From an uncultured Muribaculaceae bacterium (lineage in GTDB: Bacteria > Bacillota_I > Bacilli_A > RF39 > UBA660), in contig CAYJPM010000002.1 in the NCBI GenBank assembly GCA_964372145.1, positions 364 to 64,363 on the forward strand: a DNA stretch of 64,000 nt. The letters run 5' to 3'. Positions 10,212 to 12,989 of the stretch are shown here, in pieces. Numbering within the stretch: the stretch's first letter is position 1; the number at the start of each line of letters is the position of its first letter. A program made the position numbers and the translations under genes. The notes beneath the pieces are model-generated. The model was not told where the DNA came from, did not search any database, and worked only from the letters and a program-made list of their open reading frames with translations.

Positions 10212-10562
10212 TTAACTTTTAGGTTTAAAAAATAGGCTTAATAGAAATGCAAATACTATTGCTCCCACTATTACTGCGGAAGACTTTGAAAAAAATTCTG
10301 TAAATATGCCGAGTATTCCACTAGATTTATATCCATCTAATCCTGCTTGATATAGTAAATTACCAAAATTTGATATTAATACAGTTGCCCCTGCTCCACA
10401 TTTTTCTATTAATTTAGGATATATATTGAAATATGATAATAAGGATCCAACTACTACAAATAATGATGTTATATGTCCTGGTGTTAATTTTGTGTTATCT
10501 ATAATTATTTGTCCAATTGCACATACAAAACCTGCTAATAAAAATGCATTTATATAAATCAT
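10212..10562 (-). CDS. spoVAE: stage V sporulation protein AE (SpoVAEb)
   Basis: 116-aa membrane protein, the size and composition of SpoVAEb; last gene of a spoVAC-AD-AE trio. Confidence 0.75.
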   Translation of the reverse strand: MIYINAFLLAGFVCAIGQIIIDNTKLTPGHITSLFVVVGSLLSYFNIYPKLIEKCGAGATVLISNFGNLLYQAGLDGYKSSGILGIFTEFFSKSSAVIVGAIVFAFLLSLFFKPKS

Positions 10563-11536
10563 CTTGTTACCTCCAAACTAATAGCATGTGAAATTCCCGG
10601 AATAGTATTATGCTGATTAACTAAATTTGGAGAATGTAATGCTCCTGTTGCTAGTAAAAGTATATTTTTATATTTTTTTACTTGCAATACTTTATTAAAT
10701 AATACTAATGGCAAGCATACTGGTCCACTTCCTCCAGCATAAGTATCTTGTGTTTTTAAAAATAGTTCACAACCGGCATCCATATATTTTCTTAATTTTA
10801 TATTATATTCAATATTAGTAAATTCTGAAAATATATTTATACCAACACATCCTAAATCTCCAGTTAATATAAGATCATAATATGATAAATCTCTATTTAA
10901 GTCTTTTAAATGTTTATTTAGAGTATGTGCCGCTGCTGGTGCCATAGCTGCTCCCATATGATTAACATCGCTTACTCCCATATCAATTACTGATCCAATA
11001 GTTGCACTCTCAATTTTAATATTTGTTTTTTTCGAAGTAATTAATGCTGCTGCTGCTCCAGTTGTTGTAAATGTTGCTGTATGTGGTCTTGGGGATCCAT
11101 ATTCTACTGGATATCTATATTGTCTTTCTGCTGTTAAATTATGTGAGCTAGTAAGTGATATAGTATTTTCTAATTTATAACTATCTACCATTATACTATT
11201 TATTAGTAAGCTTTCAGTAAATGTTGAACATGCTGAGTAAATACCTAAAAATGGTATTTTATAATCTCTTAAAGAGTAATTTGTAATAGATATTTGATTT
11301 ATTAAATCTCCACCTATTAAAAAATCTATATTTTCTTCGATTAAATTATTGTTTTTTAGTAAATTATTTATACATTCTTTTTGCATTTTAATTTCAGCTT
11401 TTTCAAAAGTTTTTTCTCCGTAGTAGTAATCATCTAATGAAATATTATAATTTTTTAATTTACTTTCTTTTTCTAATGGACCTACTATAGTAAAATAATC
11501 TTTTATATATACGTTTTTAAAAATAAAACTAGACAC
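10559..11536 (-). CDS. spoVAD: stage V sporulation protein AD
   Basis: 325 aa with thiolase/FabH-like fold signatures (IYSACSTFTESL, GGSGPVCLPL). Confidence 0.8.
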   Translation of the reverse strand: MSSFIFKNVYIKDYFTIVGPLEKESKLKNYNISLDDYYYGEKTFEKAEIKMQKECINNLLKNNNLIEENIDFLIGGDLINQISITNYSLRDYKIPFLGIYSACSTFTESLLINSIMVDSYKLENTISLTSSHNLTAERQYRYPVEYGSPRPHTATFTTTGAAAALITSKKTNIKIESATIGSVIDMGVSDVNHMGAAMAPAAAHTLNKHLKDLNRDLSYYDLILTGDLGCVGINIFSEFTNIEYNIKLRKYMDAGCELFLKTQDTYAGGSGPVCLPLVLFNKVLQVKKYKNILLLATGALHSPNLVNQHNTIPGISHAISLEVTR

Positions 11537-11966
11537 CTATTATCACCTTCACAATCACTAATATAAATGAGGATATTATTCCATATAGTATTACTGAACC
11601 GGCCAATTTAAAAAAATTTGCACCTAAACCAGTTATTAATCCATCTTTTTTATAATCTAATGCACTGCTAGTTACTGAATGTGCAAATCCTGTCGTTGGT
11701 ATAATTAATCCACATTTTAATTTTGTTATCCAATTATCAAAAAAACCTATCGCAGTAAATAACGAACCTAAAAATACTATTATAAGAGCTAAAATAGTAC
11801 TTGATACTGTTCTTGATAAAGCAAAACATATCATTAGTATATTTATTATTATTTCTCCACTTAATCCTATAAAACCACCTACTAAAAATGATGTTAATAC
11901 ATTTCTTATTCTTGGTTCTTTTGGATTATGTTTTTTTATTAATTTTTTATATTCTTCTTTATTCAA
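11529..11966 (-). CDS. spoVAC: stage V sporulation protein AC
   Basis: 145-aa multi-TM protein upstream of spoVAD, as in the clostridial spoVAC/AD/AE operon. Confidence 0.8.
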   Translation of the reverse strand: MNKEEYKKLIKKHNPKEPRIRNVLTSFLVGGFIGLSGEIIINILMICFALSRTVSSTILALIIVFLGSLFTAIGFFDNWITKLKCGLIIPTTGFAHSVTSSALDYKKDGLITGLGANFFKLAGSVILYGIISSFILVIVKVIIGV

Positions 11967-12011
11967 ATTTTATCACCAATTATATTATGTAATTAAAAAT
12001 GAGAGATTATA

Positions 12012-12656
12012 CTATGTAGTCATATAATCTCTCATTTTAGTTAGACCTTTTTTTTCATATCTTGATACCATTACTTGTGTCATTTTTAATTTTCTTGCTA
12101 CATTACATTGTGTTTCATCATTTAAATATCTTTCTAATATTATTTCTTTTTCAGGTGATGGTAACATTTCAATTCCTGAATATAATAATATTTTATCATC
12201 TTCACTTATTGTTTGATTACAAAAAACAGTTTCATGTAAGTTTCTTTCGTAATCACTTTCTGAATCAAAAGATAATAATTGAGCAGATGAGTTACAAGCG
12301 AAATCTATCGTACTTATATCAATATTTAATATCTTACTTATTTCATTATTACTTGGAATGTATCCTAATTTTTGTGCTTCTTCATATCTTGTTTTTTCAA
12401 TAATTTTATATATTTTAAGTATATCTTTACTTACTTTAATATTTTTTTTATTTGCTAATTCATACATTGAACCATATATATCAAAATATGCATAAGTACT
12501 AAATTTTGTTCCTTGGTTTGCATCATAGTTATTATATGCTTTTAATAATCCTTCGAATCCTGCTTGTATTAAATCTTCTTTCTCAACTCCATAAAATTTA
12601 TTTGCTAAACTATATATAAGTTTTGCATTTTCATTAACTATTTGTTCTTTATTCAT
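12012..12656 (-). CDS. sigF: sporulation sigma factor, SigF-like (short, 214 aa)
   Basis: Sigma-70 region 2 (DLIQAGFEGLLKAYNNYD...KFSTYAYFDIYG) and region 4 HTH (QCNVARKLKMTQVMVSRYEKKG); sits between a STAS protein and spoVA. Confidence 0.7.
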   Translation of the reverse strand: MNKEQIVNENAKLIYSLANKFYGVEKEDLIQAGFEGLLKAYNNYDANQGTKFSTYAYFDIYGSMYELANKKNIKVSKDILKIYKIIEKTRYEEAQKLGYIPSNNEISKILNIDISTIDFACNSSAQLLSFDSESDYERNLHETVFCNQTISEDDKILLYSGIEMLPSPEKEIILERYLNDETQCNVARKLKMTQVMVSRYEKKGLTKMRDYMTT

Positions 12657-12659
12657 AAT

Positions 12660-12989
12660 TTATACCTCAATTAATTTTTGAGCGTCTATTTCATCCTTTA
12701 CAATTTTTATTTTTAATTCTTTACATTCATTTTTCACAGTATCATTTACATTTGTTAAAATTAATTTACCCTTATTTAATTTTATTGCCCATTTTATTTT
12801 TAATAATGCATTTAAACCTATCAAATCCATACAGTTTAACTTTTCTAAGTTTAAAACTGAATATTTAATTTTATGTTTAAGCAATACAGGTATTAAATAA
12901 TTATTAATTTTATATACATTTTTATTTATCAATTTTCCATTTAATCTTATAAAAAGAACCCCACTATTATATTCTAAATCCATTTTCAA
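12660..12989 (-). CDS. STAS-domain anti-sigma-factor antagonist-like protein (SpoIIAA-like, no conserved phospho-Ser)
   Basis: 109-aa STAS fold. Where SpoIIAA has DSSG, this protein has CMDLIGLNALL. Lies directly upstream of sigF with a 3-nt gap. Confidence 0.6.
   Translation of the reverse strand: MKMDLEYNSGVLFIRLNGKLINKNVYKINNYLIPVLLKHKIKYSVLNLEKLNCMDLIGLNALLKIKWAIKLNKGKLILTNVNDTVKNECKELKIKIVKDEIDAQKLIEV

Follow-up and report, generated by a model that had tools for sequence, protein, structure and literature searches.

Can the sigma factor that starts forespore gene expression be governed where the gene for its anti-sigma kinase, SpoIIAB, is missing from the operon? The question is raised by a locus in a 64,000-nt stretch of DNA (contig CAYJPM010000002.1, positions 364 to 64,363; hereafter, the window), in which a gene for a STAS-domain protein resembling SpoIIAA is followed directly by a gene for a SigF-like sigma factor and then by spoVAC, spoVAD and spoVAE. 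Clostridial spoIIA–spoVA loci, for example those of C. difficile and C. acetobutylicum, carry spoIIAA–spoIIAB–sigF and then spoVAC–spoVAD–spoVAE. The window locus shares with them the gene order, the orientation and the presence of spoVAC/AD/AE after sigF with a forespore-type promoter of their own, but it lacks the middle gene, spoIIAB, and it comes from a Bacilli-like lineage and not from Clostridia. We consider it probable that the locus is a genuine sigma-F operon of a small-genome Bacilli lineage with low guanine-plus-cytosine (GC) content, from which spoIIAB was deleted and in which the STAS protein was kept as a phosphorylation-independent regulator, most likely acting directly on sigma F. 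The finding extends the spoIIA system by a variant and does not constitute a system of a new kind. The lack of spoIIAB was partly anticipated, since it is mentioned in a single sentence of the literature (PMC10868615). In the literature that we searched, no description was found of a retained non-phosphorylatable SpoIIAA, a shortened sigma F or conserved promoters in the GTDB order RF39, to which the clade probably belongs.

The STAS–sigma–spoVA locus and its relatives

All five genes are on the minus strand, arranged head to tail in the order STAS, sigma, spoVAC, spoVAD and spoVAE. The STAS gene (12989..12660) begins with a TTG codon and encodes 109 amino acids, an alternative ATG start at 12983 giving the 107-residue form of database entry P0121, and the sigma gene (12656..12012) encodes 214 amino acids. 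Since only 3 nt separate the STAS stop codon (12662-12660) from the sigma ATG (12656), there is no room for an intervening gene, and an upstream extension of the sigma open reading frame (ORF) is impossible. The two genes, which occupy the same frame, are translationally coupled and co-transcribed. An in-frame read-through of the STAS stop codon into sigma was considered as a conserved feature and rejected, as the spacing differs among the loci of the clade. Further downstream, the Pfam domains appear in C-D-E order in spoVAC (11966..11529, 145 aa; SpoVAC_SpoVAEB, E = 4e-25; NCBIfam spore_V_AC, 134.8 bits), spoVAD (11536..10559, 325 aa; SpoVAD, E = 7e-110; NCBIfam PRK08304, 374.6 bits) and spoVAE (10562..10212, 116 aa; SpoVAC_SpoVAEB, E = 9e-27; NCBIfam spore_V_AE, 116.2 bits). 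The NCBIfam equivalog scores of these three proteins are near but below the respective cutoffs (134.8 vs 164 for spoVAC, 352 vs 412 for spoVAD and 116 vs 131 bits for spoVAE).

The sigma protein contains the Pfam regions Sigma70 r2, r3 (weakly matched) and r4, that is, the group-3 architecture of sigma2, sigma3 and sigma4, and its AlphaFold model is composed of three helical domains, sigma2 (residues 3-68), sigma3 (77-131) and sigma4 (152-213), with a disordered linker. Against the NCBIfam models, it scored 116.8 bits for SigF (TIGR02885), 88.8 and 76.5 bits for SigG and 52 bits for SigB, all under the equivalog cutoffs. The cutoff of the SigF equivalog is 321 bits, and 10 relatives scored between 116 and 140 bits, with SigF ahead of SigG by about 20-40 bits in all 11 proteins tested. 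The top PDB match was sigma F in complex with SpoIIAB (1L0O_C), at 81 bits, the runner-up reaching 49 bits. In that alignment, residue 3 of the window protein stands opposite residue 30 of sigma F, which indicates that about 27 N-terminal residues are missing. Judging by the ranking of hidden Markov model (HMM) scores together with synteny, the protein is probably a SigF rather than a SigG or a SigB. A first-pass annotation of the window had described a 3-nt distance between the STAS stop and the sigF start that left no space for spoIIAB, spoVAC/AD/AE downstream of sigma, and a short sigma factor of 214 residues; the coordinates bear out the first of these points, the Pfam and NCBIfam matches the second, and the roughly 27 residues fewer than in 1L0O_C agree with the third.

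This arrangement extends well beyond a single genome. A protein search found more than 1,300 relatives of the sigma factor, the best 120 of which are all 208-220 aa long and 51-66% identical, and from the 385 loci carrying this sigma type (one genome per GTDB species) the best 80 were examined in detail. Their records are labelled as metagenome-assembled genomes (MAGs) of uncultured Bacilli, Tenericutes or Mycoplasma sp., Mycoplasma sp. CAG:472 and Candidatus Onthocola. The STAS gene adjoins sigma in 78 of these 80 species representatives, with ORF-based gaps of -32 to +18 nt, and spoVAC/AD/AE lie downstream of sigma in 72; the sigma ORF is intact in 80/80 species and the STAS ORF in 78/80. 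The same five genes were also present in 4 further metagenome loci with Pfam annotation, some members sharing only 39-46% identity in the STAS protein. When all ORFs of at least 50 aa from 81 loci were clustered, the five genes were the sole conserved unit, and no extra ORF of this size recurred as a replacement for SpoIIAB in cis. The next commonest neighbours were a LytR-family gene (29 loci) and, upstream, a DacF-like S11 peptidase gene (17 loci); in B. subtilis, dacF lies upstream of spoIIA. Other sporulation genes found near the locus in relatives encode SpoIIIAH, GerE, GerM and YlbD_coat. The STAS–sigma arrangement without spoIIAB is a trait of the clade and not an accident of one genome.

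The two loci lacking a STAS ORF before sigma (L008 and L071, at about 5800-6000 in each) keep sigma and spoVA. At L071, the DacF-like S11 peptidase gene is immediately upstream of sigma, recalling the dacF–spoIIA order of B. subtilis. Inserts between sigma and spoVAC at three other loci (L009, L072 and L079) were inspected and set aside as unrelated genes without a HATPase.

Within the DNA covered, searches for the missing kinase and for substitutes were negative. PDB SpoIIAB, used as the query against six-frame translations of the window and 84 loci (943 kb in total), gave no SpoIIAB-like sequence; this sample comprised about 64 kb of the present genome and, at each of the 84 loci, about 12-20 kb. 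Neither a HATPase_c nor a PP2C domain was detected in the 50 window ORFs scanned, and no HATPase of the anti-sigma type was found within +/-10 kb of the 4 metagenome loci. According to a 2024 KEGG-based survey of high-quality genomes, the order RF39 has spoIIAB and spoIIE in reduced form or not at all, and it is the only order for which the survey reported spoIIAB missing (PMC10868615).

As for the source of the DNA, the window has a GC content of 21-35% (about 24% near the locus) and contains a class B RNase P RNA, which places it in Bacillota, and the gene content of the lineage within the window is Bacilli-like (DnaB/DnaD/DnaI, GpsB and RecU). Because the record names fit and RF39 is the one order with spoIIAB reported missing (PMC10868615), we read the clade as probably being RF39. 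The closest relatives (L003-L008, L050, L077 and L080) are labelled "uncultured Muribaculaceae bacterium", after a family of Bacteroidota; since their gene content is that of sporulating Bacillota, the Muribaculaceae label in the records is probably wrong.

The regulatory signals around the operon were also found to be conserved. Two exact Spo0A heptamers precede the STAS gene on the minus strand, a distal box, TGTCGAA, at 13073..13079 (90 nt upstream of the STAS start) and a proximal box, TTTGTCGAA, at 13047..13053 (64 nt upstream), which overlaps the -35-like TTGTCG. Only 5 such heptamers occur in the whole 64-kb window. In the related loci, TGTCGAA stands upstream of STAS in the same orientation in 73 of 79, mostly 61-67 nt from the start, within a conserved promoter region of the form TTTGTCGAA...CTATATT, and a second, upstream box is also present in some relatives; such boxes number 4.5 per kb in the upstream DNA and 0.28 per kb in the background, a 16-fold difference. 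At the level of motifs, the operon is thus predicted to have a Spo0A-dependent promoter. Between sigma and spoVAC, overlapping the sigma stop codon, lies GTATA-N18-CATAATA (11983..12012, minus strand), which we take to be a sigma G/sigma F promoter following the established B. subtilis consensus; it is the single match to GTATA-N17/18-CATAMTA in the window, and the motif was seen in most of the inspected sigma–spoVAC spacers of relatives. Together, the Spo0A boxes and the forespore-type promoter indicate that the logic of a real spoIIA–spoVA region is intact. A generic scan for sigma-70 promoters and terminators was uninformative, returning 31 promoter sites vs 31.2 expected in this AT-rich DNA and no terminators. 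The other three Spo0A heptamers are at 21048-21054 (+), 21312-21318 (+) and 50338-50344 (-); one of them is about 140 nt upstream of a secreted-protein gene at 21193, and another is upstream of a DivIVA/GpsB-like gene (49825-50154).

The STAS protein and its phosphorylation-site position

The 109-aa protein matched the Pfam STAS family (E = 8e-14), and its nearest PDB sequences were SpoIIAA of Geobacillus and B. subtilis (1TH8_B and 1AUZ_A; E = 1e-7 to 5e-6). The NCBIfam SpoIIAA equivalog TIGR02886 gave 33.7 bits, under the curated cutoff of 114.75. By the equivalog cutoffs, the STAS and sigma proteins would therefore be classed as divergent relatives and not as textbook orthologues of SpoIIAA and sigma F. 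The AlphaFold model of the STAS protein, built from an alignment of 8 sequences, has a predicted local distance difference test score (pLDDT) of 93.8, and the top Foldseek matches were the SpoIIAA chains (chain B) of 1TIL, 1TH8 and 1THN, with template modelling (TM) scores of 0.87-0.89, root-mean-square deviations of 1.8-2.1 A and about 30% identity. All of these chains come from SpoIIAA–SpoIIAB complexes. According to the model, the protein keeps the four-strand, four-helix SpoIIAA/STAS fold.

The STAS gene is under purifying selection. Median ratios of nonsynonymous to synonymous substitution rates (dN/dS) were 0.18 for STAS, 0.20 for sigma and 0.17 for SpoVAD, with 0.11-0.17 over the SpoVA genes, figures that are rough because dS is near saturation (about 1) and that to this extent lend less to the interpretation preferred here. 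The best-conserved positions of the protein are Tyr26, Lys27, Asn30, Tyr31, Pro34, Lys38 and His39, in helix alpha-1, plus Asp55 and Gly58, a pattern that points to a retained binding surface. An exhaustive profile search (E <= 1e-3) resolved the family into 602 clusters at 50% identity, all of them single-domain; with no fusion protein among the 602, the Rosetta-stone approach was uninformative.

The most pronounced departure from SpoIIAA concerns the phosphorylation site. In the HMMER alignment, MDLIGL of the window protein stands opposite MDSSGL of SpoIIAA (1TH8_B and 1AUZ_A), so that Ser58 is replaced by Leu (Leu56 of the window protein) and Ser59 by Ile. The model places this Leu at the N-terminus of helix alpha-2, the location of Ser58 in SpoIIAA. 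Across 77 distinct STAS proteins of the clade, the residue equivalent to Ser58 is Glu in 53, Asp in 5, Ser in 4 and one of nine different residues in the other 15, the window protein being the only one with Leu, whereas the flanking residues Asp57 (74/77) and Gly60 (75/77; SpoIIAA numbering, corresponding to Asp55 and Gly58 of the window protein) are conserved. A similar variability was observed in 142 representatives of the 50%-identity clusters (Glu 25, Lys 19, Ile 17, Leu 16, Ser 16, Asn 12, and others), Ser or Thr occupying the position in 21 of them. By contrast, the solved SpoIIAA and TM1442 sequences all have Ser at the phosphorylation site, which makes it very unlikely that a kinase acts on this position in the family; a position so unconstrained would not be expected were SpoIIAB kinase still acting on the STAS protein. 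Three loci (L043, L049 and L054, Ca. Onthocola-like) combine a canonical D-S-S-G STAS protein with an operon lacking spoIIAB, and this may be the ancestral state or may reflect use by another kinase.

The first-pass annotation had read CMDLIGLN in place of the DSSG site and had concluded that the phosphorylatable Ser was absent, which the alignment with SpoIIAA upholds by putting Leu at Ser58. Of the two readings that it offered, a reduced or rewired partner-switching module and a relocated spoIIAB, the first is likewise supported by the clade-wide loss of spoIIAB from the operon, the free Ser58 position, the purifying selection on STAS, the first rank of SigF in 11/11 proteins, the spoVAC–AD–AE neighbourhood of clostridial type and the survey result for RF39 (PMC10868615).

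Control of sigma F

There is good support for the view that sigma F of this lineage has escaped from partner switching by the SpoIIAB kinase and the SpoIIE phosphatase. That the STAS protein acts directly on sigma F is a weaker claim, which we advance tentatively, yet it is the likeliest single option. We favour it because STAS and sigma are translationally coupled nearly everywhere, because no partner is conserved in cis, because STAS distances co-vary with those of sigma beyond the shared phylogeny, and because the loss of STAS at L008 and L071 is easier to understand if STAS is a restrainer that can be dispensed with than if it alone antagonizes a separate inhibitor. Pairwise distances gave a partial correlation of 0.34 between STAS and sigma vs -0.19 to 0.17 between STAS and the SpoVA proteins, a weak statistic drawn from non-independent values. 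Somewhat more doubtful is the full proposal that the STAS protein is itself the sigma F-binding regulator, constituting a minimal two-protein forespore switch without kinase, phosphatase or GHKL anti-sigma factor. If STAS acts directly on sigma F, Spo0A would turn on the STAS–sigma operon, and coupled translation would yield STAS and sigma F at 1:1; the STAS protein would bind sigma F stoichiometrically, independently of phosphorylation, and restrain it; some forespore-specific event would then free sigma F, and sigma F, later sigma G, would drive the downstream spoVA promoter.

Several points weigh against this interpretation, beyond the weakness of the distance correlation. Direct binding of a sigma factor by a STAS protein has no precedent known to us. 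Elsewhere in the genomes of the clade there could be a divergent spoIIAB or a different anti-sigma factor, and a KEGG-based survey could miss a very divergent spoIIAB. Ser is kept at the Ser58 position in 4/77 STAS proteins, 3 of them with the canonical D-S-S-G, and another kinase could in principle use the Ser retained in those proteins. The placement of the clade in RF39 is a probable one that draws on agreement with the description in PMC10868615. No member of the clade has been cultured and sporulation has never been observed, and SpoMAG, a 2025 classifier for which spoIIAB is among nine genes common to all predicted sporulators, gives RF39 MAGs a 0% sporulation probability (PMC12536801); on sporulation in RF39, PMC10868615 and PMC12536801 disagree.

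Other accounts of the locus have to be set against these data. The STAS protein could still be an anti-anti-sigma factor, directed against an unrelated, non-GHKL anti-sigma-F factor encoded elsewhere (Fin-, Gin/CsfB- or FlgM-like) and responding to a trigger other than phosphorylation. A partner in trans would be compatible with all the data, the conserved Asp55, Gly58 and alpha-1/alpha-2 face shows that a binding surface is maintained, and STAS proteins can bind non-GHKL partners, as HsbA does with FlgM in Pseudomonas. We nonetheless regard this account as unlikely, given that no conserved extra ORF occurs in or near the operon, that STAS distances co-vary specifically with sigma, and that a separate anti-sigma factor would have sigma F locked off in L008 and L071, which are without STAS. 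The loss of STAS in these two species also argues against a dependent anti-sigma factor of the GHKL type, namely, a spoIIAB that has moved elsewhere, possibly very divergent or kinase-dead, and still sequesters sigma F until displaced by the non-phosphorylatable STAS protein. Such a relocation could lie outside the 64 kb of this genome and the stretches around the 84 loci that were covered, and with sigma and STAS so far under the equivalog cutoffs, a divergent SpoIIAB could evade KEGG annotation as well. The RsfB–UsfX complex 8IH8 is among the fold matches of the STAS protein, and RsfA of M. tuberculosis, a redox-controlled STAS antagonist that acts on UsfX without Ser phosphorylation, shows that a non-phosphorylated antagonist exists; the mycobacterial RsfA/RsfB–UsfX–SigF system thus has the same STAS fold, but it depends on the GHKL-type anti-sigma factor UsfX, and none was seen at the window locus. 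Moreover, Glu is the commonest residue at the Ser58 position, and acidic substitutions of Ser58 in B. subtilis mimic the inactive phospho-form. With nothing SpoIIAB-like in the 943 kb sampled and with spoIIAB and spoIIE reduced or absent in RF39 (PMC10868615), a relocated spoIIAB appears quite improbable.

The identity of the sigma factor and the functionality of the locus can be questioned as well. The sigma protein might be no sigma-F orthologue and instead another SigB/F/G-family factor (sigma G or a stress sigma factor) with an RsbV-like companion, the true spoIIA operon lying elsewhere. All scores fall under the SigF equivalog cutoff (117-140 vs 321 bits), and the top NCBIfam match for most relatives is the broad SigB/F/G subfamily model, but in none of the proteins tested does SigG or SigB score as high as SigF, the best PDB match is sigma F with a lead of 32 bits, a Spo0A box lies upstream of the operon, the DacF-like peptidase gene is upstream in 17 loci as dacF is in B. 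subtilis, and the order STAS–sigma–spoVAC–AD–AE equals that of clostridial spoIIA–spoVA loci, all of which leaves this identification with hardly any likelihood. Only slightly less remote is the view that sporulation has been lost in the lineage and what is left of the locus is in decay, with the kinase loss and the degenerate Ser as stages of gene loss. It would suit the reduced genomes and the lack of observed spores, the scoring of RF39 as non-sporulating by SpoMAG (PMC12536801) and the repeated loss of sporulation in related orders (PMC10868615), but decay is at odds with ORFs intact in 78/80 (STAS) and 80/80 (sigma) species, with dN/dS of 0.11-0.20 over all five genes, with a Spo0A box and a forespore-type promoter conserved at fixed positions, and with SpoIIIAH, GerE, GerM and YlbD_coat nearby in relatives. 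A role of the STAS protein that is unrelated to sigma F is possible too.

The comparison with characterized systems delimits what has changed under our preferred reading of a sigma-F operon that lost spoIIAB. The RsbV–RsbW–sigma B system (6M36) has the same STAS fold and a sigma factor of the same SigB/F/G subfamily, but it retains a phosphorylatable Ser and the RsbW kinase and has no link to spoVA or to Spo0A boxes. The spoIIA system of B. subtilis and Geobacillus (1TH8, 1TIL and 1L0O) is alike in the SpoIIAA fold, in a sigma factor nearest to sigma F and in the Spo0A boxes upstream, whereas the window locus has no SpoIIAB between or nearby, has Ser58 replaced and has a sigma factor about 27 residues shorter, and SpoIIE is reported as reduced or absent in its probable order, RF39 (PMC10868615). 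Turicibacter sanguinis, a spore-forming gut bacterium that belongs to a related, atypical branch of the Bacilli and has sigma F, E, G and K, differs from the window locus in retaining the canonical set, with consecutive genes for SpoIIAA (J3478_01580), SpoIIAB (01575) and sigma F (01570) (PMC13492147).

The phosphorylation switch to which textbooks attribute the onset of forespore gene expression probably cannot work as described in this species-rich, low-GC gut group, where selection maintains sigma F, spoVA, further sporulation genes and a relic of SpoIIAA although the operon has no gene for the kinase. The locus offers a natural example of endospore development in which a first switch supposed to be universal is probably missing and the rest of the locus is conserved. 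If the clade sporulates, the compartment-specific activation of sigma F needs a different and simpler route, which bears on the evolution of the switch; if it does not, the locus would show a conserved role of the sigma-F regulon outside sporulation. Should direct binding between STAS and sigma F prove true, no earlier case would be known of a STAS-domain protein with a direct action on a sigma factor, and should the two-protein switch prove true, hundreds of uncultured gut species could enter endospore formation without the SpoIIAB/SpoIIE module, which is regarded as universal. Gene-content predictors that demand spoIIAB will misjudge these abundant gut taxa.

Other features of the window

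Further features of the window were noted outside the spoIIA–spoVA locus. A region at 16351-23674, mostly on the minus strand, includes a SipW/archaeal-type signal peptidase I gene (23120-23674; NCBIfam TIGR02228, 74.8 bits), beside which lie six genes for signal-anchored proteins (211-451 aa) that matched neither Pfam nor NCBIfam, and the GC content rises locally to 0.35 at 18-20 kb within it; the clustered proteins could be SipW substrates that build a fibre or pilus. On the minus strand, 45872-47847 holds three paralogous ORFs in tandem (207, 239 and 203 aa), none of which matched a known family, and 47968-48282 holds a Cys/His-rich ORF of 104 aa, which by eye has the look of a CotD-type spore coat protein and gave no Pfam or NCBIfam match. 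A membrane protein encoded at 6781-8622 (-) has a C-terminal GGDEF match that ends at profile position 86 of 161, where the ORF itself ends, so that its diguanylate cyclase domain appears truncated. The ordinary RNAs of the window comprise a T-box leader before argS (31063-31256, minus strand), the class B RNase P RNA (49488-49825, minus strand) and a tRNA gene (45030-45103, minus strand). Finally, a Tad/type-IV-like pilus cluster at 58566-63836 (-) contains a T4SS_pilin-like gene, TadB/C-like membrane proteins and two small pilin-like ORFs (60968-61490), with a T2SSE ATPase fragment at the window edge.

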